64,000 nt of DNA from the NCBI GenBank assembly GCA_964016885.1, contig OZ024740.1:89900001-89964000 (forward strand), read 5' to 3'. Below are positions 2,757 to 63,273 of the stretch, piece after piece. Origin of the DNA: Eledone cirrhosa (lineage: Eukaryota). Position 1 is the stretch's first letter; each line of letters begins with the position of its first letter. The position numbers and the translations under genes are program-made. The notes below the pieces were generated by a model, which was not told where the DNA came from, did no database searches, and was given only the letters and a program-made list of their open reading frames with translations.

Positions 2757-3811
2757 CACAACAGGCAGAGAAACCCCCAAAGCAAGTGCTTCCTTAAAAT
2801 CCCGCACGTGGGCGAGAAAACTAGCAACGCTATCAGCAGCGCCATACGGAGGAAGAGCCTCGACATCCACTTGGCCCACTCGAGGCCCTCCCCTCCCTAC
2901 GGAGATGCATCTCTAGGAAACCCGAAAAATTGGCTGACACGTGTTCCCTCAGAATCTGTCCGATGCGTCAAACGAACTGTTGCTTACGCACGTACGTCGT
3001 ATACCAGGTAGAATGTGTCAAGAAGTGTAACGACTTCTACATCGGTAGCAGCATCCGGCAACTACATGTTCGTATCAAGGAGCACATGAACGTTAGGGCC
3101 TCGTCTTCCCGGAAGCACATAATAAAATACGGAAACAAAGACGGAAGGCCCATTGTCACAGTGTTAGCGACGGCACTTTAAGAATCAAGGAAGCATTTTG
3201 GATCAAACGCCTCGGACCACAAATAAATAACCGATCCGCTAGAAGTGAGACGAGATGGCTGGTGTAAACAAATGAAACAACAACAACAACACACACACAC
3301 ACACGGTAGCATTCGAGCGATTGTTATTGTGTATATATCGGGTCCAACACCGACCTACCGACAGACAGCAAGCAGGCGGACCACCTATAACAACATCACA
3401 ACTGCCAGTATCAAATATAAAAAAGACTTACGGGGAAAATGTGTACGCATTGATACATCACCGCCCCATTACTCTAGTATGGAAGACTGCCGCAAACTTT
3501 GTCGGACCGCAGCTATTCCACGCGCACACTATAAACAACAGAGGCCACGTATTGTGCCTCTCGGACAAAAAACATTTCCCCCTCAGAAAAGTCCCAGTTG
3601 ATGGATGCGAAATCCAAAATATAGGGACAATTAAATCATTTCCAAGGTAAATTTAATTTATGTTATTAATTTTACACTCTTTCCTACCTTCTTCTACCTC
3701 CTCTACGTCTCATTCTACAATTCCTCTTACATCTCTCTCTCTCTCATCACCACTTGATTCTGTTACCTGCAGATTTACCCATCTGCATTGTTGAGGCTTA
3801 CAAAACCACCA

Positions 3812-3814
<3 letters not shown>
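2757..3814 (+). mobile_element. Degenerate 5'-truncated Penelope-like element (GIY-YIG end plus 3' terminal region)
   Basis: Frameshifted peptides CFLKIPHVGEKTSNAI and CLRTYVVYQVECVKKCNDFYIGSSIRQLHVRIKEH are homologous to the C-terminus of ORF 27771-30410. An HHR-like motif follows and the element ends at (TA)n 3815. Confidence 0.85.
3591..3628 (+). ncRNA. Degenerate variant hammerhead ribozyme
   Basis: GTCCC-AGTTGA-T-GGAT[GCGAA]ATCC-AAAA-TATA-GGGAC, the same layout as 27568-27603 with co-varying stems. Confidence 0.55.
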
Positions 3815-3847
<33 letters not shown>

Positions 3848-3939
3848 TTAAAATAATAGAGGTGTAACACACGAGTTATGATATATTGGTAAACAAATTG
3901 TTCCCAGTGAAAAATAGTATAATTAGGAATAAGTAAACA

Positions 3940-4393
3940 TTAGTAATAGTATTGGTTAGTATTCAGTTTTGGTTTTAAGTTTTACCGGTTGTGCATTGCT
4001 AATGCTTTTCAAAAATAATTTTGAGATAGAGCGCCCGTGATGCTTGCTCTAATCTGATTAGTTTTGGAAATTCTACCTGTTTTATGTGAAAAAAGTGTCT
4101 CCAGATATATTAAAATAAGTTTCGCGCCAATTCGTGTTGAACAAATTCTTGTGGTCAAAACAATTTTGATTGGTCCGTAGAGGTCATGCGAATGATAACA
4201 ATTGATTTTGCGCCAAATGTAGGTTTGTCTCGGCTGATTGAGAAGTCACTGAAAAATAAGTCTTTCAAAACAAATATGTGTGTGTGTGTGTAGTAGTAGT
4301 AAAGATGTTGGTTATTGTGATAATGGTCAGCAGGGATGTGTATGCGACCGTAGCCTGTTGACAGTTCAGATGCCTATTAAGACAAGTGTGTGT

Positions 4394-4445
<52 letters not shown>

Positions 4446-4450
4446 ATATG

Positions 4451-4512
<62 letters not shown>

Positions 4513-4590
4513 TGTTACGTAAGTCGGATATTTGATTACGGCTTCACAGAAACACTTTAAACGTATATCGTATAATTTGTCCAGGTGTAC
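3940..4590 (+). repeat. Dispersed repeat, unclassified (inverted copy at ~37320-38150)
   Basis: 3940-4210 matches the reverse complement of ~37750-38150 (e.g. GCTTTTCAAAAATAATTTTGAGATAGAG). Both copies abut (TG)n/(CA)n tracts. Confidence 0.65.
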
Positions 4591-4644
4591 CATTTTTAGA
4601 CTGTTAGTTTTTTCATTGTTCTGCTATTGTGTGTTAGGTTTTGC

Positions 4645-4789
4645 CTACCACAATGTTCAATTTGTCAAGCTATTTAAACGTAGGTTGTTACTCTCAGGAC
4701 CTTCCCTTATTGAGTGCTTTGCTAACTCATTCATATTGTAGGTCGACTTTGCTTGCCCACAGCCAAAGCTTCGATTTTACGAAACATCC

Positions 4790-4835
<46 letters not shown>

Positions 4836-5548
4836 GTAAATAAATCGTTTTTTTTTTTGTTGAAATCGTATTCCGAAATATATTTTTATACTTTAGTAGC
4901 GGCATGCTGCGAATAAAAAATAAACATCTACCAATTGATTTTCATTCCGACTTATTATTTGAAAACTTAATCCGCACATCAGTTAGTTTATTAACCGAAT
5001 TTGTTTGTTTTTGTTTTATTATTAATAGACAAATCATTATGGTGACAATTCTCACTGATTATTGTTGCTCATCTGTTCCTCCTGTTTTAAACAGATCGCG
5101 TCCTATCTAGTTTATCGTTTCTTTTAAAGATGTTTCTCTGATCAGCTTCTATGAATGTGCTAGTGTCTATGTGCGGGTGTATATCTCTGTGGTGATAAAT
5201 CTACTTGACTCAGTACTTTACTTATAGATATCCTATCAATGAAGTAGCCTGATGAAATAGGAGAAGAATATTAACACATGGTAAGCGACGATTGGATGCA
5301 ATTTCCATTTAAGAATATAAACAACTTTGTAATTTCAAGGATCACATAATGACATTTGCTTAAATGCAAAATATCTGAGGGTGAAATGGCTACGTACATT
5401 GCAATAACGTGATACATTGAGACAACATAACTTTAAAGTCTATAACGTAAATAATCATATCGTGAATGTTATTTAACTTGTTCCGAGACACGTGACTGCT
5501 ACATAGAGAAAACCAATAGGCCACCAAAAATGAATTTTATATATATAT
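4645..5548 (+). repeat. Left copy of ~0.9-kb inverted duplication (partner ~8050-8940)
   Basis: Colinear reverse-complement match across a PLE tail (4645-4790), a TA tract and ~710 bp of non-repeat DNA, with scattered substitutions. Confidence 0.85.
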
Positions 5549-5584
5549 ATATATATAAATTCATTTTTGATGGCCTATTGGTTT

Positions 5585-5674
<90 letters not shown>

Positions 5675-5751
5675 CCCCCCCTATATCTCTATCTCTCCCT
5701 CTCTCTCTCTCTCTATCTCTCTATGTATCTCTCTCTCTCTCTCTCTCTCGC

Positions 5752-5780
<29 letters not shown>
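5585..5780. repeat. (CT)n + (TA)n microsatellite
   Basis: Seen directly. Confidence 0.95.
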
Positions 5781-6915
<1,135 letters not shown>

Positions 6916-6935
6916 GCTAAACTAATTCATCGCCG

Positions 6936-7018
<83 letters not shown>

Positions 7019-7081
7019 AATATATATATATATAGTTGTTATATAGTAAGATGCATTATCGGTTGTGTAAAAAGGTCCAAT

Positions 7082-7152
<71 letters not shown>

Positions 7153-7158
<6 letters not shown>

Positions 7159-7425
7159 ATACTTTGGGAGGCTCATGTTGCCAATAAGTAACACACGCAC
7201 CAGTCGTTTCACTTCAATTTATTATAATAATAATAAATTTATAAACTTAGGAATTTATAAATTTCCGGTTGGTTGGTTGGTTCCACAACCAGATGGTTGT
7301 TCATATATTGTCAAGGTTCTTTCGTCTCACATTATGTGACCTCTTCAGTGATTGGGGATTCTTTTATTTGCTTTTTTGTGCCTCTCCTTTGCTCTGTCCT
7401 ACGCCATCTTGCTAATTTGGCAACG
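7153..7425 (-). mobile_element. PLE terminal fragment with HHR (7309-7353), same family as 41832-43400
   Basis: Colinear with 41832-42080. Carries CTGAAGA...GAAA on the minus strand and is TA-flanked. Confidence 0.8.
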
Positions 7426-7438
7426 CTCATTTGGTAAC

Positions 7439-7543
<105 letters not shown>

Positions 7544-7697
7544 TATAGTTGTTATATAGTAAAGTGCATTATTGGTTGTGTAAAAACGTCCAATAACTTT
7601 ATGTTACCAAATTAAGTTCTACACGCTTTTGTATATCTCCAATTCCATTCAAGAGAAAACCAATAGTCCACCAAAAATGAGTTTATATATATATATA

Positions 7698-7937
7698 TCA
7701 AAATGAAAATCCGAAGGCAAGGTAAATTCCAATCATTTAATCACGACACACGTTTCAATAAGAGATAGATCGATTGTGAAGCCATGATCGATAATTACTG
7801 AACTTATCAGGTGAAAATAAATAATCTTCAGATTATTGATATGAGGGAGGAAAAATAACGAGGATTTTCTCTTATTGAAACATGTGTCGTGATTAAATGA
7901 TTGGAATTTAACTTTGCCTTCGGATTTTCACTTTGAT
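7698..7937. mobile_element. Inverted PLE-end insertion with HHR-like motif (7741-7814, -)
   Basis: Arms 7698-7765 and 7868-7937 are reverse complements. Minus strand reads TCAC-CTGATAA-~45 nt-GAAAC-GTGT-GTC-GTGA. Confidence 0.7.
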
Positions 7938-7979
7938 ATATATATACATATATATATATATATCTACATACATACATAT

Positions 7980-8040
<61 letters not shown>

Positions 8041-8049
8041 TATTTACAA

Positions 8050-8753
8050 ATATATAAATTCATTTTTGGTGGCCTAATGGTTTTCTCTATGTAACAGTCA
8101 GATGTCTCGGAACAAGTTAAATAACATTCACGATATGATTAATTACGTTATAGACTTTAAAGTTGTGTCTCAATATATTACGTTATTGCAATGTACGTAG
8201 TCATTACGCCTTCAGATATTTTGCATTTAAGCAAACGTCACTATGTCATCCTCAAAATTACAAAGTTGTTTATACTCTTAAAATGTAACTTGCATCCAAC
8301 TGTCGCTTACCATGTGTTAATATTCTTCTTCTATTTCATCAGGTTTCTTCATTAAAAGGTCTCTATAATAAAGAACGGAGTCAAATAGATTTATCACTAC
8401 AGAGATATACACGAGCACATAGACAGTAGCACAGTCACATAAGCTAATCAGAGAAACATCTTTAAAAAAAGGATAAACTAGATAGGACGAGATCTGCATA
8501 AAACAAGAGGAGCAGATGAGCAACAATAGTTAGTGAGAAGTGTCGCCATAATGATTTGACTATTAATAATAAAACAGAAACAAACAAATTCGGTTAATAA
8601 ACTAACTGATGTGCGGATTAATTTTTCAAATAATAGGTCGGAATGAAATTCAATTGGTAGATGTTTATTTTTTATTCACAGCATGCCGCTACAAAAGTAT
8701 ACAAATATATTTCGGAATACGATTTCAAACAAAAAACGATTTATTTACGTATT

Positions 8754-8789
<36 letters not shown>

Positions 8790-8940
8790 TCTGGAAGCTT
8801 AGTAAAATCGAAACTTTGGCTGTGGGCAAGCAGAGTCGACCTACAATATGAATGAGTTAGCAAAGCGTTCAATAAGGGAAGGTCCTTAGAGTAACAACCT
8901 GCGTTTAAATAGCTTGACAAATTGAACATTGTGGATGAAC
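8050..8940 (-). repeat. Right copy of ~0.9-kb inverted duplication
   Basis: Reverse complement of 4645-5548. Confidence 0.85.
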
Positions 8941-9745
8941 ACTGATACAAGTATACATGTGTTCACATTGAAAATGACCAAGTTAGCTAGATTGAAAAAT
9001 ACTAATTAAAATAATTCGGTTTGCCTGTCTCGATTTAAAATAATAAATCAATAAAAACAAACATATATTGTCAATAGCCGTGATACCTGGGCAAATTTTA
9101 AATTTTAAATGTCAAATTTGTTTCCCAACAATTAAGTGAAAGTTCCCATTCCTGTGCTCTTCTGCAGGTCTCCAGAAATTGGTAAGTTTCACTTCAAAAT
9201 ACTTAAGAAGACTGAGAGAAATGTCTTGTTGAAAGTACATATGTCACAACGCCTAGCACGTCCAATACTCGTGCCGCCTAAATAGCAGCCGGTTTTATGG
9301 GACTAATAATTAGCTCAACGCATGGAGCCGATAATATTATATATAGAGTTATAAACTCAAATAGTCTTTTACAATTAAATAGCTCACAGAAAGGAATATT
9401 TCTCAGCTATTTTTAGCGGCACGATGATGAGACGACATGCGCTGTGACACATGCGCTTTCAACAACAGATTTTTCTTAGTCTTCTTAAGTATCTTGAATT
9501 GAAACTTACCAATTTCTGGATATCGCACAGGAATGAGAACTTTCACTTAATGTTGCGAAACAAATTTGAAATTTAAAATTTTAAATTTGTCCAGGTATCA
9601 CGGCTATTGCCAATATAGGTTTGTGTTTATTGATTTATTATTTTAAATAGAGACAGGCAAACCGTATTATTTTAATTAGTATTTTTCAATCTAGCTAACT
9701 TGGTCATTTGCAATGCGAACACATGTATACTTGTATCAGTGTTTA
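8785..9745. mobile_element. Inverted-repeat insertion, probable PLE end (HHR not clearly retained)
   Basis: Arms ~8940-9250 and ~9445-9742 are reverse complements. The left arm has an extra ~150-bp tail ending at (TA)n. Confidence 0.6.
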
Positions 9746-12428: not shown

Positions 12429-12617
12429 AAATGTTTAAGACCCCGACGACAGAGTTCAAGCCGTCTCGGCGGCTATTTCTGGATGTGATAGCCGTCGAAA
12501 CGGCTTGAGCTCTGCCGTCGGGGTCTTGAATATTTTCATATTACCCACTGTACAACCCGAAGCATTGAGTACTCTGGTACATTATGGTCCATCTGGTTCC
12601 TTACCACACTTTATTCG

Positions 12618-12619
<2 letters not shown>
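12425..12619. mobile_element. Fold-back PLE-end insertion (HHR 3' half; MVHLVPYH tail)
   Basis: Hairpin 12432-12530 carries GAAAC-GGC[TTGAGCTCT]GCC-GTC-GGGGTC. Same family as 26515-26711, 39121-39298 and ~18470-18586. TA on both sides. Confidence 0.8.
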
Positions 12620-18250: not shown

Positions 18251-18579
18251 TGACTGATTTGGCACCCACAATTCAGACCTTCATCATACACCCTCCTCTT
18301 TGTTCTTCAGGCCAGTTCAGCGCCCCGTCACTATGAAGGAATTAGACCATGTATGTAACACCCCAGATCATTGACCACTCCCCGTGTCAGACAAGAAAAA
18401 CAACATTTTTTTAGGGATATTTGCTTTGATATATCTGCTTTGTTGTTTTGACTGCATGCCCATATATGGAACGTAGCCCTTGATAGGTTCAGCTAGATTC
18501 CCGCCGTTCAAATACTGGTGGCTTAGTTCGGATCTAGCTGTCAATATGGCCAGAGCTCAGCCGTCGGGTTCCTGAATCT

Positions 18580-24164: not shown

Positions 24165-26711
<2,547 letters not shown>

Positions 26712-27567
26712 TATATATATATATAGGTAGCACCATCCGACCCCTACATGTTCGTATCAAGGAACATATCAACACCAACGCATCTTCCTTCCGTAAACAT
26801 ATCCTCAAATGCGGAAACCCACAGGGTAGACCCTTGGTCACAGTCCTAGCGACTGAACGCAGCATCGGATCCTTAAGGATAAAGGAAGCACTTGTTATTA
26901 AGAACCTCAGACCCCCACTTAACAACCGGGCTGAGAGAAATGAGCTGACATGGCTAACTTAACCATAATGACCATTCACAGCCTACGGCCTGCTATCTTC
27001 ACACACACGCACGTATATGCATACCCATACGCATGCACACACACTTCTATATTTTACACGCACACATGTTTTTACAACCTACCACCTTTCACACCCTTTG
27101 ATTTCCAGCTTCTACAGCCCACTATCTTTCACACACAAACGCACTCACACATATACATACACAGTTACACACACACACGTATACCCATACGCTTACACAC
27201 ACATCTATATTTATACACGCACACATATTTTACAACCTACCACCTTTCACACCCTTTGATTTCCAACTTCTACAGCCCACTATCTTTCACACACACACAC
27301 ACTCACACATATACACACTTACACTTATACACACACAGTCACACACACATATATATTTACATACACATATCTTACGGCTTTCACACGCTAACGCACCCTC
27401 TTGATTTAACCCATTTGGTCAGTAGCTTTTGCCACAGCTTATCACGCGCACGCGCATTCTCTCCCTCGTTTAAATTTTAAATATTTTTCTCCCCATAACG
27501 GCATTCCTGTCTTAACGACATCACCACTTTCTCCGCTTGGCCTGTTTTTCCCCCCTTTTGGAACTTT

Positions 27568-27603
27568 TCCCCCGTTGATGGGCGTGAGCCCGAAATATTG
27601 GGA
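27568..27603 (+). ncRNA. Minimal hammerhead-like ribozyme, CCGTTGA core (identical copy 31020-31055)
   Basis: TCCC-CCGTTGA-T-GGGC[GTGA]GCCC-GAAA-TA-TT-GGGA with a GNRA-capped stem II and palindromic AATATT, at the position typical of PLE HHRs. Confidence 0.7.
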
Positions 27604-27620
27604 TTAAAATCTCTACTACG

Positions 27621-27715
27621 GTAACCCTTCTACCTTTGTTTTGTTTTCATCTGTGTCTCTCTCAACTTTCACTTTCACCTGTTTTTCCTATCTATATTTC
27701 ACTTCCTACCTCGAG
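27621..27715 (+). other. Putative retained 5'-UTR intron of the PLE
   Basis: GTAACC...polypyrimidine...CCTCGAG|ATTT. The equivalent GTAAAT...CCTGCAG|ATTT lies at 3647-3772 in the related element. Confidence 0.5.
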
Positions 27716-27770
27716 ATTTCCCTTTGCATTGTTGTGGCTTTCTTAAATACGTATTTTTACACATTTCACA

Positions 27771-30410
27771 ATGCTTCAAGCAAACTTTAACACCCTCTTA
27801 TCATTACACCTGAGCCAGGACTTGTTTGCACCCATAAGGGACCTATTCAGACTATCGGAGAATCGTGCCAAACTCGGTTGCCAAATTACCTTCTTAAAAC
27901 GCTGCCTAAAGAACAACATCATTCCAACCACCATCAGGAATATACATCTACCCGAATGTTTACGATCACCATCCTTCGAAAACACCATCCGCCACATTCA
28001 ACGCACTTTTATCAAGAAAATACTACGACACAACCACCACCAACTGCGACTCCATATACAAACGCTTTCTGAGCACTTAGATCGTATAGCTCCAATCCTC
28101 ACCCCTGACCACCAGGTCCAGGATATACGCAAAGCTATAGATCAGTGTTACCACACCAGAGTCAAATTTGATAAACAGCGCCTTGTACGGAAATACGAAT
28201 GGACTGTAAACAAATACTACATTGACAACATCCGCTCCCACAGACGGACCGACTACAACCACACCAGGGGCAATAGCTGTACAACACCCTCCGCTACACC
28301 CCCCAACATCGATCTACCTACCAACGATGCTTCACACCTCGTTACCGACTTAACCGGTACCCTCACCAACGACGAACTCGAACTTCTGCGCCTCGGACCC
28401 AAGTTCATCATTACACAGCGTCTCGATGATAGACTGAAACTCGACATCGAAACCAACTTCTGTCAGACAGCTTATCAACTGAAATGGCTAACCGCCATCC
28501 AAAACAACACCGAGATCGATTACAACCCCACAACCCACCCCACACTCCCCACGTATCACCTCGACAACCCACTCCACCCCCCACCCACCAACCACGAACT
28601 TGACACTAAACTACTCAGGTTGAAACATTCTATCTCTAACATCCTTTCCCAACACACACACACACACAATAAACGCAACCTCACCAATGCACAATTTAAT
28701 ACTCTCACCAACCTAAGATCCAGGAACCTTGTGTACCTTCCCTGTGACAAGGGGAAAGAATTCTGTGTCATCTCGAGAGAGACCTACAACAACTTAGCTC
28801 TCCAACATCTTAATGACCACAGCCTCTACTCGAAAGTCACAGGGACCTCCTCGACTCTAATCGAGGAAGGCATTAACACCATATGGACCAACATCTGTGT
28901 CCAACGAAAACTGCCAAAGAAGGTAAAAAACAACATAATGACTCGAAACAGCAAATTACCCACCTTCTACCACCTGGTCAAAACACATAAACAAGGACCC
29001 GATTTGAAAATCAGGCCCATTGTCTCTAGCGTGGAGGGCCCACTCTATAAAATATCGTGGCTGCTCTCCACACTACTGAAACCTATTCTACACACACTAC
29101 CAGCCCACGTCTGCAGCTCAAAGGAAGTCTTGGAGCGACTACACCATCTGGCGCCCAACACCAGAAAGGACAACGGTTATGCCTTCAGTCTTGATGTGGT
29201 CGCCCTTTATACCTCCGTACCAGCATCCCCAGCTGTCGACCTGTTGACCGAACGAGTCCGAGCATCTAACTTACACTGCTTCGGACTCACACACACGGAC
29301 ATCCACCAACTCCTCTCCTTCGTTGTGGATAATGCACTCTTCAATTTCCTCGGCCACACGTACAAACAAATCTCTGGGCTACCTATGGGCTCTAGTCTGT
29401 CCGGCATACTTGCGATCTCGTACATGGACCACCTGGAACGCAAGGCACTCAATACCTGCCAACCCAACGCCGTCGCCTTCTACTCCAGATACGTTGATGA
29501 TATCCTGATACTTACTTCTTCCCGGGAGATGGCGAATGAAATTCACCAAATCTTCAACGATACTGACCAACACATCGATTTCACCATCGAACACCCGGGA
29601 GAAGACGGGTCACTCGCCCTCCTCGACTTCCGTATCAACATCTCGGAAGAAGGAGACATAAACACCACTTTCTACCGCAAAGCAGCGTGCAAGGACTTAT
29701 TTGTGCATTATAACTCAGCCCTCCCCAACAACGCTAAGAGAGGCTATGTCCTAAATGAACTGACACGGATCACTAACAGATGCAGCGACCCGATGGGTGG
29801 TCTCACCCATACCACGCAATTCCGTAATCTACTCAGATCTAATGGTTATCCCAAGCGACTGATTAACGGAATTAGAGACCCCAGACCCAGTAGACTGACA
29901 CCCACTAGAAAACTTAATATTAGCAGGTGCTTCTTTAAAATCCCCCACCTGAGTGAATATACCACGAACGCCATCCGCAGGGCCATACGTACGGAGGGAC
30001 TTGACATACATTTGGCCCACACAGGACCTTCGCTGCGAAGATGCCTCTCCAACAAACCCTACGAGGCAGATGGGACGTGTTCCCTCAGCAACTGCCCGAT
30101 ACGGGGGGCAGATTGCCTACGCACCTATGTCGTATATAAGATTCAATGCGATAAATGTAACAAGTTTTACATAGGTAGCACCATCCGACCCCTACATGTT
30201 CGTATCAAGGAACATATCAACACCAACGCATCTTCCTTCCGTAAACATATCCTCAAATGCGGAAACCCACAGGGTAGACCCTTGGTCACAGTCCTAGCGA
30301 CTGAACGCAGCATCGGATCCTTAAGGATAAAGGAAGCACTTGTTATTAAGAACCTCAGACCCCCACTTAACAACCGGGCTGAGAGAAATGAGCTGACATG
30401 GCTAACTTAA
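27771..30410 (+). CDS. PLE polyprotein: reverse transcriptase plus C-terminal GIY-YIG endonuclease (879 aa)
   Basis: N-terminal FLKRC..NNIIP and a DKG box. RT motifs IRPIVS, FSLDVVALYT, QISGLPMGS and RYVDD; thumb FYRK. Cys linker CSLSNC..C, then VVY-CDKC-YIG, RIKEH, KH, E and LN. Confidence 0.96.
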   Translation: MLQANFNTLLSLHLSQDLFAPIRDLFRLSENRAKLGCQITFLKRCLKNNIIPTTIRNIHLPECLRSPSFENTIRHIQRTFIKKILRHNHHQLRLHIQTLSEHLDRIAPILTPDHQVQDIRKAIDQCYHTRVKFDKQRLVRKYEWTVNKYYIDNIRSHRRTDYNHTRGNSCTTPSATPPNIDLPTNDASHLVTDLTGTLTNDELELLRLGPKFIITQRLDDRLKLDIETNFCQTAYQLKWLTAIQNNTEIDYNPTTHPTLPTYHLDNPLHPPPTNHELDTKLLRLKHSISNILSQHTHTHNKRNLTNAQFNTLTNLRSRNLVYLPCDKGKEFCVISRETYNNLALQHLNDHSLYSKVTGTSSTLIEEGINTIWTNICVQRKLPKKVKNNIMTRNSKLPTFYHLVKTHKQGPDLKIRPIVSSVEGPLYKISWLLSTLLKPILHTLPAHVCSSKEVLERLHHLAPNTRKDNGYAFSLDVVALYTSVPASPAVDLLTERVRASNLHCFGLTHTDIHQLLSFVVDNALFNFLGHTYKQISGLPMGSSLSGILAISYMDHLERKALNTCQPNAVAFYSRYVDDILILTSSREMANEIHQIFNDTDQHIDFTIEHPGEDGSLALLDFRINISEEGDINTTFYRKAACKDLFVHYNSALPNNAKRGYVLNELTRITNRCSDPMGGLTHTTQFRNLLRSNGYPKRLINGIRDPRPSRLTPTRKLNISRCFFKIPHLSEYTTNAIRRAIRTEGLDIHLAHTGPSLRRCLSNKPYEADGTCSLSNCPIRGADCLRTYVVYKIQCDKCNKFYIGSTIRPLHVRIKEHINTNASSFRKHILKCGNPQGRPLVTVLATERSIGSLRIKEALVIKNLRPPLNNRAERNELTWLT

Positions 30411-31250
30411 CCATAATGACCATTCACAGCCTACGGCCTGCTATCTTCACACACACGCACGTATATGCATACCCATACGCATGCACACACACTTCTATAT
30501 TTTACACGCACACATGTTTTTACAACCTACCACCTTTCACACCCTTTGATTTCCAGCTTCTACAGCCCACTATCTTTCACACACAAACGCACTCACACAT
30601 ATACATACACAGTTACACACACACATGTATACCCATACGCTTACACACACACACATCTATATTTATACACGCACACATATTTTACAACCTACCACCTTTC
30701 ACACCCTTTGATTTCCAACTTCTACAGCCCACTATCTTTCACACACACACACACTCACACATATACACACTTACACTTATACACACACAGTCACACACAC
30801 ATATATATTTACATACACATATCTTACGGCTTTCACACGCTAACGCACCCTCTTGATTTAACCCATTTGGTCAGTAGCTTTTGCCACAGCTTATCACGCG
30901 CACGCGCATTCTCTCCCTCGTTTAAATTTTAAATATTTTTCTCCCCATAACGGCATTCCTGTCTTAACGACATCACCACTTTCTCCGCTTGGCCTGTTTT
31001 TCCCCCCTTTTGGAACTTTTCCCCCGTTGATGGGCGTGAGCCCGAAATATTGGGATTAAAATCTCTACTACGGTAACCCTTCTACCTTTGTTTTGTTTTC
31101 ATCTTTGTCTCTCTCAACTTTCACTTTCACCTGTTTTTCCTATCTATATTTCACTTCCTACCTCGAGATTTCCCTTTGCATTGTTGTGGCTTTCTTAAAT
31201 ACGTATTTTTACACATTTCACAATGCTTCAAGCAAACTTTAACACCCTCT

Positions 31251-31253
<3 letters not shown>
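30171..31253 (+). repeat. 3' pseudo-LTR including first 10 codons of the ORF
   Basis: Ends ATGCTTCAAGCAAACTTTAACACCCTCTTAT then (TA)n. Confidence 0.93.
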
Positions 31254-31289
<36 letters not shown>

Positions 31290-39120: not shown

Positions 39121-39294
39121 AGAAGGAAATGTGGTAAGGAACCAGATGGACCATAACGCACCAATGTACTCAATACTTAGCGTAGTAGAGTGGGTAATAG
39201 GAACAAGTATGACCCCGACGGCAGAGCTCAAGCCGTTTCGACGCAATTAGCCGTCGAGACGGCTTGAGCTCTGCCGTCGGGGGTCATACTTGTT

Positions 39295-39298
<4 letters not shown>
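39121..39298. mobile_element. Fold-back PLE-end insertion (MVHLVPYH family), reverse orientation
   Basis: Hairpin 39197-39298 plus a long tail on the left; TA on both sides. Confidence 0.82.
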
Positions 39299-40463
<1,165 letters not shown>

Positions 40464-41831: not shown

Positions 41832-43400
41832 ATTGTTATACTTTGGGAGTGTCATGTTGTCAATAAGAAACACACGCACCAGCTGCTTTCACTTCAATTT
41901 ATTATAATACATTTATAAATTTAGGAATTTATAAATTTCCGGTTGGTTGGTTCCACAACCAGATGATTGTTTATATATAGTCAAAGTTCCTTCGTCACAC
42001 ATTCTGTGACCTCTTCAGAGACTGGGGATTCTTTTCTTTGTTTTTGTGCCTCTCCTTTCTTCTGTCCTACGTCATCTTGTTTTTGTGTGTGTGTTGTGTG
42101 CTTAGTTTGCGCATGTGTTACATCCAGGTGTCTGTGTGTGTTTATATTCGTTTATTTATTTGTTTATTTACATGTTACTGGTTGGTTGTTTGTTATATGT
42201 GCGTGTGTGTTTTCATTTTGTCCATAATTGTAAGTTGTGATGTTGCTGTTCCACTCATGTTTTCTATTTAATTTGGTTGGAGTTCATTCATGTTTATTGC
42301 CTCTGTGATTCGTCTAAACATTGCGTCTTTTCTGTGTGTAGATTCTATTTTTATTTCTATGTTCTCTAATGTACCCTTATGTTCTATTTTAGCATGTTGG
42401 TAGAGTACAGATGATTCTTTAATATCTTGAAGGCCTCGTCAGTGTTCATTTATCCGTTCCTCTATACTACGAGCTGTCTCACCTATGTACACTATATTTT
42501 TATCTCTACATTGTCCTTCAGTACATCATATGCTATATACTACATTTCTAGTTTTACAGTTAATATGGTGGCTTACTTTACAGATTATACATGTCTTATC
42601 TATACAGGGAGGTCTTTGAAAAGGGTATGTATTGCTAATACGTGTTTTTATGGAGGTACCTGGTCTTTCTACTATCTTAATATTGAGTTTATGTTTATCT
42701 AGGGCCCTTCTAAACGTGTAAGCTAATTCACCTCTAGGGGTTGTATCGATGAACATTACAGTCTGGTATTTATTGCTATAATACCATGAGTTTATTCTAT
42801 TATTCTTATTCCTAGTTCTTTCTATTCTATTCCAAAATTTGCTCATATACAAGGGGCAGGTCCCATTTGTGTCATTATTTATCATTTTTTTCCCATTTGG
42901 TTATGGCTCCTCTATATACCCTGATTTATCTCTCTGATTGTAACCAGAGAACTGCATACTGTGGATGAAGTGTTGTATATGTCTCTCTAGTACTTCGGGG
43001 TTGCATATGTGGGACACGTTTCTCATCACCCGTACCAAATCCGCAATCAGTATGTTGATTTTGGTATGGTCCGAAACAGCTGAGTTTCGGTGTATCAGAT
43101 ATTTGGAAGTCATGGGTTTGTCATAATGGGAATTGAGGATTGTTTTTTGTTATTAATGGTATCTAACCAGAGCTCTGTGTCTAGTACAGCTAATCGATGG
43201 TTGGGGTGCTTGCTTGGGTAGTCTATAGTAACTCTAATACTCTGCTTGATGGAGTTAGCTATTTGCTGGATGCTTTCCTTGTGTTTTTCTCTAATTCCTG
43301 ACTGTTCTCTAGTGGGAGTGTTTTAACTACGACGTTTATATCATCAACATAGCGGGAGTACATTATCAGGTTTAAGGGGTCTCCTAATTGTTCTTTAAGT
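41832..43400 (-). mobile_element. 5'-truncated PLE (Naiad-like by recalled motifs), pseudogenised
   Basis: RYVDD remnant near 43340, KPMTSKYLIHRNSA, FIDTTPRGELA, KIVERPG, CIDKTCIIC..C, NVVY..CTEGQC..YIGETARS..ERINEH and LNRKHEW. HHR at 41979-42023; tail MTLPKYNN at (TA)n. Confidence 0.88.
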
Positions 43401-51209: not shown

Positions 51210-53040
51210 TTTTTTAAAGTATTAAATATGTTTATTTACAATAGTTTAGAAGTTTGCCTATTAATCCGTACGGTAATAAAATGGGGTCCCACGTGCTGAC
51301 CGCCCCACAGCACCGGCGCATAGGATGGAGAAGATGTTTCCCGGAGGATGGTAAGGGAGATGCGCTGTAAGAGCCATTCCAACTAGCGAGGCTCATACTT
51401 GCGGCTGGTCAGCTCAGCGCCTAATGTGGTGAATAGGGAGGTAGCCCTAGGGCCAAGGACACCAGAAGACTTCACTGCCAAGGGTACGACCGCGAAACTG
51501 TCGGAGAGTCACCGGTACTTAGAGAGTTTGTCCTCCTCAGTCAGACGTGCAGCAGTATCTGAGTTAGTCGCAGACTGCACCAGGTTGCGATTGGAGCCAG
51601 TGTCGCTGCGAGTGGCATCCCAGACGAGGGGTTTCCACCGCGGAACGGGAACATTGTCATACCGTGTGGCCTTTTGAAATCCCGTCGGACCAACCCCACT
51701 GGCTCGAGCTGGGAGGTGAAGCCTGCAGCGTCCAAGCCATGTCTAATGAGATCACGTTGAGGGCAGCATGTCGTGGAAGGCGGCCGGCACTGTGGCGACA
51801 GAAAAGTGGGTGGAAACCGAAAGAGTCCACGATGGATCCACATCGACATTTATCTGGCTCGCAGATCCGGAGTCCAAGCCTCAAAGAAACGCCGATCCGC
51901 AGGCTATCATTATCCAGCTGCGTGCCAGTGAGGAAGGAGGAAAAGGCATGGAGACAGACACAACTGTGGGGTTTGGAGGCCGCCGGAAAACAGGCAAGGT
52001 GGTGCATGTCGAGCTGGCCCGTGAGCCTGTCTGAGGCTAGGCTGCACTGAATGACATCCCATATGCTTTGGGGAGAATTGACGTCAGCAGGGTGAGAAGG
52101 AGGAGGGACGTCTACTGGGCTAAGTCCCAATCTGTCCCACATTTCACAGACGACCTCACGTTCCCTGAACACATAGGATTATATTGTGTCTTGGAGAACC
52201 CTGCTGACGGGGCATGAGTTTACCGATGAAAGAAACGCCGGCAAAGCCAGTGAGATTGAGGACCAGAGGCCAAGGTCACCTTATCTGACAGGTAAAGTGG
52301 CTAGTTCCCATCTAATGTCGTCAAACCTGGCGTTGCATATCTCCTCAGCTGCCGCTTGGATACAAGTATCGAGGTCAGGGAGGAGAGATGCGTGGCTTTA
52401 GCACGGAGCGCTGCGAAGAGTGTAGAGGAGCAACAGAAAGAGAGCTGGATGGCCGACGATCAAGCCCAGTCGGCTCGTGAGGGTCTGGAGTAGATGGAGC
52501 CTAGACCTGAGTGTGGAGAGGATGGCCGGCGGGTGATTCGGTGACCTGAGCATGAGGACATCCAATTTGGGGTCATCTGTATCTAGGGGAGAATAGATCG
52601 CACGTCCGAGACGCAGGCTGCAAAGCTCTTAGCCTTATGGCTTACATTCACCACCTTAGACGTGGACGAGTTGACCTGGAGGCCGATTCCACCAGGGCAG
52701 GAACCACCAATTAAAGGTAATGGCAGACAGTCTCCACGGGTCCGCCCAGCATAACATCATCCAGGTGCCAAACGTTGAGAGGGGCCGTGATACTCCGGGC
52801 AATGTAGTATTTACCAAGGGCAAACAGGAGGAGACCCAAAGGGTGGACACCAGTGGCCGAAAGTATGACCGTATCAGCAGCAAGGAACATGCTCGGGGCT
52901 CCATTTGAAAAGTAGGCCAGCAGGTAGGCGGAGGGCACGGCTGAGGCAGGCAACGAGCAGATTGTCCCGGCGTATGCAGTTAAAGGCATTCCTCATGTCA
53001 AGCTTGACAATTAGGTGCCTGGAGTCCCTGGATTTTTCAA
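51210..53040 (-). mobile_element. 5'-truncated CRE-clade non-LTR retrotransposon (RT + CCHC + restriction-like endonuclease), pseudogenised
   Basis: Motifs VKLDMRNAFN, PLGLLLFAL, WHLDD, LRLGL..CRCG..HPLFC, RHAALN, KRPHGMT and LVWDAT. AATAAA and a short poly(A) run into (TA)n at ~51197-51216. Confidence 0.85.
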
Positions 53041-53687: not shown

Positions 53688-56110
53688 CAAAATGTATGGT
53701 AGGTCGTATGTGAATCGCGATGGTCACGCCTGACCTACCAAATATGCGACGGTAGCTAGTTAAGCTCTATGCGTATAAGCAGACCAGAAATATTAATGAA
53801 AAAGAACAAAGGAACTATTATGACATTATAACAAGTTTATTGCCGACAGTCGTTTCGTCCCACCATATCGTGGGACTTTTCAAGGCATATAACAGGTGAT
53901 TGTAAGTTCATTATTTACATCAACGTTTGACTCAAGATTAGCAGTTTGAAATTGTGGTATACATCAACAGCTCGGCTTGTATATTTGGGGTCTATATTCT
54001 AAGGGGGCTCTTTTATATTAGTTGAAGGAGTTGTAAAAGGGATGGGTTATAGGGAGTGAAGAGAATTTGAAAAGGGCCTAAGAGATTGAAGGTTAAAAAT
54101 GAGAGAATTTATAGTTTACGCATTCACGGTAAAAGACTTGGGATCTCGTAGAAGCACCTTAAAAATCCCTCAATAAGCCTAACAAACCAGGGATATTAAG
54201 AGACTAAAAAAATAAAAAAAATAAAAATATGGAGTTTCCTAAAAAAATATAAAGTTTCCTAAAAAATTCCTTCAAAAGAAAAAATGTTTTTCTAAGAGAT
54301 CACGTTAAAAAAATTCAGAAAATTTACGAAGTTTTGGTAATCCCTACTAAAGTTCTAAACTCAGAAACTAAAAATTAAAAATTAAAAATTAGGGAAAAGA
54401 GCTTTCAATAAGATTTAACAGGTTAATAAAGTTAATGATTTAGGGAGTACATATTATAAATATTAAGATTTAATTTAGGATTTGAATTTTAAGAGTTCCA
54501 AACCCCGAAATTAAAAGATGAAATGAATTTAAGATTAAGCAATCTTATATATCCATGATTAAAAATTAACGATTAAGGGGTTGAACATTAAATTTAATTT
54601 TAAAAATTAAGAAATAAATATTTGAAAGAAACTAATCAATTAAAAGTAAATTCAAAAAGCCTTAAAAAAATCCCTCAGAAAAGGCCCCTTTAATATTTTT
54701 AATAAGAACCTCTTCCGAAAGACCCTTCAAAGAATTAAAATTTTAGAGAGCCTTTAAAGATATATATAAACGAATTGAGGAAAATTACAAATTAAAAGTT
54801 AAAAATTACGGGATTTGAGAGATCCGAGGAATTTTCAAAGGGCTGCTTCAACAGATACAACTTAGGTATAATAGATAAAGTAATTTAAGTAATTTAAGTA
54901 ATCTAAATAGGGAGCAATTCAAAGAGCTTATCAAGTTTGGCAAGATTAAAGAAAATGATAAGTAAGAAAATACCTAAGCAAAAAGACAATAATTATAAAA
55001 TGTATTTTTAAGAAGGTATAAGGTAGCTTCAGTAATCTAATAATGTACTATCAGGGATATCCCTGAGCAAATTTTGCTTGACTGTTAATTGTTTATTGAT
55101 TGTTTGTTAATTAGGCAGGAATATATTATTATGTCTTTGTTAATCCTATATTAATAATTTTATAATAATGTTTTGATAGTACATTATTAGATTTCAGAGG
55201 GATTTTTTTAATGCTTTTTGAATTAACCTTTAATTGATTAGTTTCTTTCAAATATTTCTTTCTTAATTTTTAAAATTAAATTTAATGTTCAACCCCTTAA
55301 TCGTTAATTTTTAATCATGGATATATAAGATTGCTTAATCTTAAATTCATTTAATTTTTTAATTTCGGGGTTTGGAACTCTTAAAATTCAAATCCTAAAT
55401 TAAATCTTAATATTTATAATATGTACTCCCTAAATCATTAACTTTATTAACCTGTTAAATCTTATTGAAAGCTCTTTACCCTAATTTTTAATGTTTAATT
55501 TTTAGTTTCTGAGTTTAGAACTTTAGTAGGGATTACCAAAACTTCGTAAATTTTCTGATATTTTTTAACATGATCTCTTAGAAAATTGTTTTTTCTTTTG
55601 AAGGAATTTTTTAGGAAACTTTATATTTTTTTAGGAAACTTTATGTTTTTATTTTTTTTATTTTTTTAGTCTCTTAATCTCTTCTGGTTTGTAAGGTTTA
55701 TTGGGGCTTATAAGCTTTATGCACTTATTGAGGGATTTTTAAAGTGTTTCTACGAGATCCCAAGTCTTTTACTTTTAATGCGTAAACTATAAATTCTCTA
55801 ATTTTTAACCTTCAATCCCTGACTCTTAGGCCCTTTTCAAATTCTCTTAACTCCCTATAACCCATCTCTTTTACAACTCCTACAACTAATATAAAAGAGC
55901 CCCCTTAGCATATAGACCCCAACTATACAAGCGGAGCTGTTGATCTATACCACAATTTCAAACTGCTAATCTTGAGTGAAAAGTTGATGTAAATAATGAA
56001 CTTACAATCACGTGTTATATGCCTTGAAAAGTTCCACCATATGGTCGGACGAAACGGCTGTCGGCAATAAACTTGTTATAATGTCATAATAGTTCCTTTG
56101 TTCTTTTTCA

Positions 56111-56115
<5 letters not shown>
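53686..56115. mobile_element. Large inverted PLE-end insertion (~0.9-kb arms) with two HHRs
   Basis: Arms 53791-54681 and 55190-56115; HHRs at 53841-53887 (-) and 56020-56066 (+). Extra ~105-bp tail at 53686-53790; TA on both sides. Confidence 0.88.
53841..53887 (-). ncRNA. Hammerhead ribozyme with U3-A8 core variant
   Basis: TGCC-TTGAAAA-GTCCCAC[GATATG]GTGGGAC-GAAAC-GACT-GTC-GGCA. Confidence 0.82.
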
Positions 56116-56192
<77 letters not shown>

Positions 56193-59637: not shown

Positions 59638-60078
59638 TAAATAAAAATAAAAATAAAAATAAAAATAAAAATAAAAATGAAAATAAAAATAAAAATAAAA
59701 ATAAAAATAAAAATAAAAATAAAAATAAAAATAAAAATAAAAATAAAAATAAAAATAAAAATAAAAATAAAAATAAACATAAAAATAAAAATAAAAATAA
59801 AAATAAAAATAAAAATAAAAATAAAAATAAAAATAAAATTACAAATAAAAATAAAAATAAAAATAAAAATAAAAATAAAAATAAAAATAAAAATAAAAAT
59901 AAAAATAAAAATAAAAATAAAAATAAAAATAAAAATAAAAATAAAAATAAAAATAAAAATAAAAATAAAAATAAAAATAAAAATAAAAATAAAAATAAAA
60001 ATAAAAATAAAAATAAAAATAAAATAAAAAATAAAAATAAAAATAAAAATAAAAATAAAAATAAAAATAAAAATAAAA
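59638..60078. repeat. (TAAAAA)n hexamer array, ~440 bp
   Basis: Seen directly; lies inside the PLE 3' UTR. Confidence 0.95.
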
Positions 60079-61305: not shown

Positions 61306-62812
61306 CTAATGCATACAATTTACAGTACCAGAACTTTTAGGTTTATAATAAAAGTAAGAATTAGAAATGCCGTGGGGGCAAGACGAGAATATCTCAGACT
61401 TTCTATTAAGTAAGAGTTCCCTAGAGAAAATTATAGAGTGGGTCTCAAGGATACAGAGATTTCAGAATTTGGTGTGTGTTGATAGGTTATTAGAGCGTGC
61501 TACTATTCGCCAATTAAGGCTATATGGTATATTAGCCCCCTTAAGATCCCAGATATGGTGTGCTAAAGAAGTAGAATTCTTAAACTTAACATGTTTAAAA
61601 TTAGAGATATGAGAATTAAACCTAGTCTTAAAAGTGTTAGATGTTGAGCCTACATATGTGCTATTAGAGGAATAAGTTTTAACTACACAAGCATAAACGA
61701 TGTTCTTAGAGAGGCAGTTACCGTTTAAAGGGCAGTTAACACTCACTCTACAGTTACACTTCAGGGTGCTATTAATTGGCTGAAGTAGTGATGCATCCCT
61801 CGTAGGGTTACTATGAGATAAGGTCTGCTCAGGTGGTAAGGCATTTATGGATCTATCCAGACTAGTAGTACGCAGAGAGGAGTAGCCATCCCTAATGTGC
61901 CCATCGTTAGTGCTAGCTAAATGAGAACTAATATTAGGGGTGGTAGAGAATGATAGTTTAATTACATTTTTATTAAAAATACCATGGTATTTATTAATAG
62001 GAGCGACATGTTTCTCTAAGATAGAAAAGAAAGACCTAGGGATGTTAGTTAATACTTCCTGATTATATGGCGGGTTAAAATAAGTATTTAGTCTCCTTCT
62101 ATTTCTATCCTTACCAACTCTACCGTTATCTAATATCCCATTATTATTAAGATCTGGGTTACTACGAGGACTAGTTAAAACCACATTGTTATAATCAGCC
62201 GAAACTCCATTGAGTCTCTTTCTGTTTCTACCTTTAGTATATCTACTGCTATCTGGAATCATATCAAAAGGATTAGGGCTGATAATAGGATCAGTAGAAA
62301 CAACACTATTAGAATTAGATTTAGCATAAGCATCACCACTGAGTGCGCGCTCAGAGCGCCCAACTTGATCCCTAGAACTATTAGATTCACTATTAAGAAT
62401 CCGGTGGCTTAACTTATGGATGGGTTCGGATACACCTATCTGATTTCTACGATTCTTATGCATTCTACTCCCATTCATGGTCATATTATGGGATATTATA
62501 TTATTATTATATGTAAGCGGAGACTTTCTAAGGTTACTATTATTATAATGTATTTTACCAGAGTAACCGGAGCTAGCTAGGGCGTTATTATAGTACTCTG
62601 CATGTGCATTAAATATTCATATGTCCTTAGAGAGTGTGGAAATTCTATTAGATACACCATTAATTATAGAGCTTATCATAGATTTGGGGTGGTTAGAATT
62701 GGGACTAACATAAGAGAGTATTTCATTTGGCTTATGGAAGGGTTTAACACTATTAGTGACCAAGTCCAAAGTCACATCTAAAAAGTTGACCGCTCTATCA
62801 TTTCTATCTATC

Positions 62813-62813
<1 letters not shown>
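61306..62813 (-). pseudogene. Truncated PLE ORF (RT thumb, long linker, GIY-YIG)
   Basis: ORFs 62617-62889 and 61462-62484 are in the same frame, and reading continues past TGA 61462 to TAG 61306. Confidence 0.88.
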
Positions 62814-62862
<49 letters not shown>

Positions 62863-62872
62863 ATGTGTGTGT

Positions 62873-63273
62873 GTAGATAAATCTACCAAAATATACGGTA
62901 GTGTCCAATCCGTATGAAAAGCTCAATGTAATCCAAATACCATGAAGAGAGAAGATGTATTCAAAAATGTTTCGATGTAAATCTCAGGAAAACAGAGTCA
63001 AGATAAATTAATAAAAACAATGAATAAAAACAAAGAGACAGTTCCTTATATTAAAAAATGCATCATTTTACGATCGAAATAATTATTTCTGAAGACAGCA
63101 TATATATGTGTAGGTATGTATATTTCCTCTGATAGTTTTTAAAATGTTTACATATATCTATATTATATACATACCAACACACACATATACATCCTGAAAT
63201 GATCGTAAAATGATGTATTTTTTAATATAAGGAATTATTTCTTTGTTTTTATTCATTGTTTTTATTCATTTAT
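62873..63273. mobile_element. Inverted PLE-end insertion with long-stem-II HHR (63083-63213, +)
   Basis: TTATTT-CTGAAGA-100 nt-GAAA-TGATCG-TA-AAATGA. The left arm carries the long tail. Confidence 0.8.

Follow-up and report, generated by a model that had tools for sequence, protein, structure and literature searches.

A probable young and intact Penelope-like element of partial-tandem form, related to Nematis-type elements, within a TA tract of Eledone cirrhosa

The DNA analysed here (the window) is a stretch of 64,000 nt from Eledone cirrhosa (assembly GCA_964016885.1, contig OZ024740.1, positions 89,900,001-89,964,000, forward strand), and the element in question occupies its positions 26723-31253. 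The evidence points to a young, intact, partial-tandem Penelope-like element (PLE) with a C-terminal endonuclease (EN), which would belong to a three-Cys-linker group sister to Nematis-type elements and would have been copied into a TA tract by reverse transcription primed inside the start of its open reading frame (ORF); we give this explanation as a whole, mechanism included, a probability of about 0.7. Most of what it involves has precedents. Published work already reports for PLEs pseudo-long terminal repeats (pseudo-LTRs) and a tail that reaches into the beginning of the ORF, together with internal initiation of reverse transcription and a (TA)n bias (PMC8557442, PMC11167929), as well as the partial-tandem form (PMC8557442, PMC3846280). 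Every architectural feature highlighted by a preliminary description, made from the letters of this DNA, is thus known for PLEs, 5' microhomology included. As read from the sequence, what is unusual in the element is limited to an altered zinc-binding motif and a hammerhead-like motif in which two letters of the core are changed; this altered hammerhead and the group with the three-Cys/His linker may be new.

The ORF (27771-30410, plus strand) opens with the ATG at 27771 and runs uninterrupted for 879 codons to its sole stop (30408-30410), as had been described. It is flanked by direct repeats of 1,079 nt (26723-27801) and 1,083 nt (30171-31253), 99.4% identical, which differ at two substitutions (27178 C/30626 T; 27653 G/31105 T) and in the length of a CA run, through a 4-nt indel at 30643-30646; together with an extra mismatch within the 5' TA tract (26722 T/30170 C), this matches the roughly four events counted before. 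Their divergence is 0.19% (95% range 0.02-0.67%), a figure to be read with the proviso that some differences between pseudo-LTRs may already have been present in a tandem donor; the young age that had been proposed is supported. With a unit of 3,452 nt, the insert of 4,531 nt amounts to 1.31 units, in keeping with the earlier suggestion of a template longer than one unit. On its 5' side the element begins within codon 801, which encodes the Ile of YIG. At the other side, a second ATG lies at 31223, and the last position of the element, 31253, corresponds to ORF position +31 (10 codons and 1 nt into the second ORF copy, as had been noticed); a TA tract (31251-31273) follows. Both ends do show the microhomology to the target claimed for them, with ATA (26723-26725) common to the element and the TA tract at 26710-26725, and TAT (31251-31253), the first TAT in the ORF (+29 to +31), common to the element and the TA tract at its 3' side. 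As for the chance of such 3-nt overlaps, 3.8% of unit positions end in at least three alternating A/T letters, and perfect (TA)n tracts make up 5-6% of the window. The features are as follows:

26710..26725, no strand: 5' half of the target TA tract; its last ATA is shared with the element
26723..27801, plus strand: 5' pseudo-LTR, a 5'-truncated upstream unit holding the last 79 ORF codons, the untranslated region (UTR) and the first 31 nt of the ORF
27021..27337, plus strand: CA-rich tandem duplication of about 158 bp in the UTR, which recurs at 30465-30789
27568..27603, plus strand: minimal type I hammerhead-like motif, with a predicted cut after 27599 if it cleaves
27771..30410, plus strand: 879-aa ORF with helical N-terminus, GPKF, DKG, TERT-like reverse transcriptase (RT), linker and GIY-YIG endonuclease
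30078..30116, plus strand: three-Cys linker C770-x4-C775-x6-C782, with His809 as candidate fourth zinc ligand
30129..30374, plus strand: GIY-YIG endonuclease, with CCHH (C793, C796, H815, H826) and catalytic R811, E855 and N867
30171..31253, plus strand: 3' pseudo-LTR and tail, the second ORF start being 31223-31253
31020..31055, plus strand: second copy of the hammerhead-like motif, twin of 27568-27603
31251..31273, no strand: 3' half of the target TA tract; TAT at 31251-31253 is shared with the element
26516..26709, plus strand: repeat of about 195 bp with a near-perfect hairpin of about 106 nt, unrelated to the PLE, whose TA-tract flank received the insertion

Regarding the protein, Pfam reports RVT_1 (E 3.5e-11) and, at aa 786-830, GIY-YIG (E 3.2e-4; 21.4 bits, just below the gathering cut-off of 22.6), so that the EN, comprising these residues and beyond, is C-terminal to the RT in the same ORF. 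The structure model of the ORF product has a predicted local distance difference test score (pLDDT) of 89 and its three best predicted fold matches are TERTs, while a separate model of the C-terminal 341 aa is poor (pLDDT 68). GPKF (aa 209-212), DKG (aa 326-328) and YVDD (aa 574-577) are present, all catalytic motifs are intact, and in a 45-sequence alignment the CCHH residues are invariant, as are C770, C775, C782 and H809. The Penelope-like identity, which had been recognized beforehand, therefore stands on RVT_1, the TERT fold matches, GxKF/DKG and the CCHH GIY-YIG. By this identity the enzyme is predicted to be an RT plus a nicking endonuclease, so the word integrase used for it has to be dropped, and so does compact, since 879 aa is ordinary for a PLE (838-842 aa in other PLE ORFs; PMC3846280).

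The linker is what sets the protein apart. When 156 homologs were classified by their EN linker, 100 had three Cys, 12 had four, 16 had other arrangements and 28 had no EN. DKGxE[FL] appears in 62, and KTHK in 71, of the 79 homologs holding both DK and RPI. A His nine residues past the Tyr of YIG (H809 in the element) is found in 98 of the 99 scorable three-Cys proteins versus two of the 12 four-Cys ones. This co-occurrence suggests a candidate CCC+H zinc site; because the rows are related by descent, it is to be taken as a lead and not as proof. A 62-row FastTree phylogeny, built on rows other than named reference elements, gathers 42 of the 44 three-Cys rows on a single branch (support 95). 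An IQ-TREE phylogeny of 24 chosen rows groups nine three-Cys rows (99/97) as sister (93/94) to six four-Cys rows with Nematis-like motifs, and linker-less homologs branch apart. The Nematis clade was reportedly defined by Arkhipova in 2006.

The element shares with Nematis (Nematis_Cr, _C4 and _Pp; PMC8557442, suppl. Figs S2 and S7) a C-terminal EN with CCHH, a short Cys linker and the motifs DK[G/R]GEF-type, KTHK, RPI..GP...SW and YRK.A.K.L, and its RT motif pattern agrees with the published Nematis rows of Fig. S7 in by-eye comparison and motif counts. In contrast to the CX2-5CxxC...C of Nematis, its linker is C-x4-C-x6-C with a conserved His, and for the lack of CX2-5CxxC we call it Nematis-related rather than a member of the clade. 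Furthermore, it reads YIGST where Nematis reads YIGET and has no long insert after KTHK. The PNL2_SM row, Nematis-labelled or adjacent, likewise has a reduced linker (PMC8557442, suppl.), and no description of a three-Cys linker was found in the available portions of the Nematis and Penelope literature. The remaining clades fit less well: Penelope/Poseidon elements have no Cys linker before the EN, which is present here; Neptune has a long linker with CxxC, which this protein lacks (PMC8557442, suppl. Fig. S2), and different RT motifs; Hydra has DKT/RWK and a CxCX5C linker and is devoid of CCHH, whereas the element has CCHH and DKG; and Naiad/Chlamys carry an N-terminal EN, unlike the C-terminal one found here. 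With Hydra, Naiad and Neptune the element shares a (TA)n or microsatellite bias, proposed to be Cys-linker-dependent; almost every Hydra family and many Naiads are listed as having the (TA)n bias, which is also discussed for Neptune (PMC8557442). Among viral contigs, 63 pattern matches included no relative, and neither did the 133 matches of a metagenome scan made with the single protein.

Is the TA flank a property of the family or of this copy? The region 27400-30450 was compared in four of 15 listed runs, X1, X4, X6 and X13 (X7-X12, whose shares are small, and X2, X3, X5, X14 and X15 lay outside the comparison). Among the ends listed (141 further rows stand outside these, and two were dropped at repeats), at least 19 contigs of X1 (agreement 0.65) and at least two of X4 (agreement 0.98) have a loose end at 27801 that continues as (AT)n, and none at 27801 is seen in X6. 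In X13, 91 raw reads stop at 27800 on a flank that is AT-rich and not (TA)n. The family 3' end is fixed at ORF +31, and TA is its commonest visible flank, not the sole one; because of the X13 stack, (TA)n is a preference and not a strict specificity. The TA targeting put forward in the preliminary description thus holds insofar as family 3' ends are TA-flanked in independent runs, and its wording as microsatellite-specific does not, given the X13 reads and the favouring of collapsed TA flanks by contigs. Summed contig depth in X1, which is not copy number, is about 61,000-69,000 just upstream of +31, about 770 just downstream, and 3,000-9,000 toward the ORF 3' end; this steep 3'-biased profile fits heavy 5' truncation. 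In the same run, depth at 27500-27801 is about 80-fold above that of the ORF start and doubles just past the predicted hammerhead cut, and a very abundant non-autonomous derivative of about 200 nt may lie behind it.

The lineage appears to have diverged under purifying selection, because 18 of 27 listed ORF differences from the other samples are synonymous versus 23% expected (P 2e-6, in a model that leaves out transition bias; 40 of 105 rows were listed, of which eight non-ORF rows and five at an indel shift at 29912-29921 were dropped). As to related metagenome loci, L007 breaks off in the ORF start after about 26 nt and continues in an AAT-like repeat, and L008/L009, of one family, diverge directly after TAT.

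The hammerhead-like motif has the core C3 C4 G5 U6 U7 G8 A9, i.e., U4C plus A6U. A relaxed descriptor matches exactly two sites in the window on both strands, one per repeat, and none of 1000 UTR shuffles. With the minimal type I hammerheads of metazoan PLEs (PMC4209133) the motif shares short stems I and II, a bulge after A9, the G10.1-C11.1 pair, the palindromic 15.2/16.2 and the location in the pseudo-LTR, and it differs from them in the replacement of U4 and A6 (C4/U6 here, A4/U6 in a sister family). That sister family is represented at 2781-3847 by an older, broken PLE copy, 67% identical in the EN, whose motif at 3594 shares the altered core (A4, U6) and also has G12A and compensatory stem II pairs. 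Among the rows listed from the other runs, 27573 and 27575 have no variant while neighbouring positions do, so U4C/A6U seems family-wide. Eight of 24 related metagenome loci match the descriptor, all eight keep U4 and A6, and their positions 3 and 8 covary (C-G, A-U, G-C, U-A). Rfam finds no hammerhead in the element, nor in nine related loci, most of them with near-canonical minimal motifs, which makes this negative uninformative; minimum free energy folding of the motif region is equally so (z -0.24). Variants of PLE hammerheads were reportedly treated by Luense et al. in 2017. No report of a U4/A6 double variant in PLEs was found in the literature. In other hammerheads U4C and A6C each reduce cleavage (PMC3088659), and A6C can shift metal preference (PMC7151607).

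These data bear on the template. The preliminary description had it running from the hammerhead ribozyme, which does not agree with an insert whose beginning lies about 850 nt ahead of the first motif and which crosses both and runs about 200 nt past the second. Because it extends beyond both motifs, a linear ribozyme-to-ribozyme monomer could not be the template and, the core being altered as well, cleavage at these sites did not set the template ends. From the sequence, the template would be an uncut multimer or a circle; the multimer is favoured because of the altered core, although sequence cannot decide between them.

The closest model for the insertion is the Poseidon of Anolis carolinensis (PAc), which nicks AT-rich DNA, initiates reverse transcription internally in the ORF start and can dispense with ribozyme cleavage in vitro (PMC11167929). 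It has in common with our element the tandem/pseudo-LTR layout, AT-rich targets, long N-terminal helices and a 3' end that is fixed within the beginning of the ORF. Unlike it, PAc has no Cys linker, has its 3' end, which shows no homology to the target, at about +111 to +118 instead of at +31 on TAT, and has a hammerhead overlapping the start codon, while the element's motif is 172 nt upstream of its ATG. By extension of that work, a tandem donor would yield a multimeric RNA, bound by the protein near the ORF start, and the GIY-YIG domain, probably aided by the linker zinc site, would nick AT-rich DNA, mostly (TA)n. The freed ATA end would pair with UAU at +29 to +31, differently from what was seen with PAc, and prime reverse transcription internally. 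Most events would halt early and leave short copies; here the complementary DNA would have run 1.31 units across two uncut hammerhead-like sites before it was connected with the remaining half of the TA tract via the 3-nt ATA overlap. That tract was probably there before the insertion, for the left-flank repeat has sister copies (12435-12619 and, on the minus strand, 39122-39299) that carry a TA tract without the PLE.

Several points weigh against this reading. The start sites of reverse transcription in PAc are non-homologous to the cut DNA, which counts against pairing as the determinant (PMC11167929). Consensus agreement at the X1 flank is low, the 91 X13 reads lack (TA)n, low-coverage contigs retain shared TA flanks and drop unique ones, and contig depth is no count of copies. 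No inspected related metagenome locus ends in a long TA tract, the AAT-like repeat of L007 included. Finally, neither tree held named reference elements, the Nematis link resting on unnamed proteins with Nematis motifs. On a bolder version, the element would stand for an undescribed, widespread PLE lineage sister to Nematis with a CCC+H EN zinc site, a hammerhead that in this host lineage has lost the U4/A6 turn and is kept as a non-cleaving or protein-dependent structure, and UAU:ATA-primed integration at a fixed internal site; we hold this combination as doubtful and put it forward tentatively.

Other explanations deserve consideration. The strongest, a real possibility although short of an even chance, is that the copy is intact and yet no working source, having recently inserted from a donor elsewhere: it carries differences absent from the compared runs, among them C325, directly before DKG, where those runs and the homolog consensus have S, and its second ORF start spans 31 nt when PAc needed 172 nt (PMC11167929). 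Nonetheless, its catalytic motifs are all intact and partial tandems of the same form are active in Drosophila (PMC3846280); the features of the copy fit a recent, unbroken insertion, which may be active. It is unlikely, in turn, that the EN merely prefers AT-rich DNA, the 3' (TA)n having entered the RNA by read-through at the donor or having arisen afterwards by slippage, and assembly bias making it dominant among contigs. The non-TA junction in X13 raw reads, the cutting of ATT by PAc (PMC11167929) and the 138 tracts of at least (TA)4 in the 64 kb speak for such a preference, but the TA tract lies on both sides of the window copy, sister copies of the flanking repeat have it without the PLE, and an X1 5' truncation end (row 29601) also begins in TA.

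Circular templates have been proposed for PLEs (PMC4209133), and in the model of Cervera and De la Pena a unit-length RNA circle, formed through ribozyme cleavage followed by ligation, would on being copied beyond a full turn give an insert of 1.31 units with near-identical repeats. The kept hammerhead stems and most of the core, the compensatory stem II changes of the sister family and the near doubling of X1 depth in the bin starting just past the predicted cut (32,049 to 68,833) would suit it too. However, U4 and A6 are both changed, cleavage is dispensable for PAc, and the depth step may come from indels in nearby homopolymers, all of which makes the circle less likely still than the plain AT preference. 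An assembly artefact behind the direct repeat is barely credible: even though the locus is known here from the window assembly alone, the repeats differ at three places, contigs of X1 (27775-27937) and X6 (27717-27902) span the UTR-ORF junction, and the metagenome loci L004, L005 and L006 have the same order of ORF end, hammerhead and new ORF start.

The surroundings of the element are rich in repeats, with at least three PLE types within the window. Another copy of the ~195-bp hairpin repeat lies at 18523-18573; its copies are usually TA-flanked and it is possibly a non-autonomous foldback element. The older sister-family PLE copy (2781-3814) ends against (TA)16. Remnants at 24253-25190 (plus strand), which begins directly after (TA)28, and 61462-62922 (minus strand) have the Hydra-clade motifs FLDVTLDL, FNPPY and CNCR-x4-CPLNGNC, by eye versus PMC8557442 (suppl. 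Fig. S7). At 42295-43131 (minus strand) there is another PLE remnant, with a four-Cys linker. Broken RT and restriction-like endonuclease reading frames occupy 51541-52979 (minus strand); we take them to resemble CRE-type non-LTR elements, and a domain search gave no match. Nested long inverted repeats with arms of 490 nt (96%) and 295 nt (95%) end at a TA tract (53790-56117), and an (AAATAA) array of 73 copies is found at 59639-60078.

Microsatellite insertion bias and tandem formation have been singled out as unsettled matters for which an in vitro system is required (PMC8557442). PAc is the one full-length PLE protein studied in vitro, and its clade is without the Cys linker thought to drive the bias. 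With an ORF that is intact and bears the linker, and with one fixed 3' end at a TAT, the element would allow a direct test of linker recognition against primer pairing, although the special value of this copy is limited because intact copies from Hydra, Naiad or Neptune could be used for it too. If true, UAU:ATA priming would mean that homology assists entry into (TA)n, in contrast to Poseidon, for which a non-homologous start is reported. Furthermore, the family has multiplied with an altered hammerhead core, which bears on whether PLE ribozymes must cleave.

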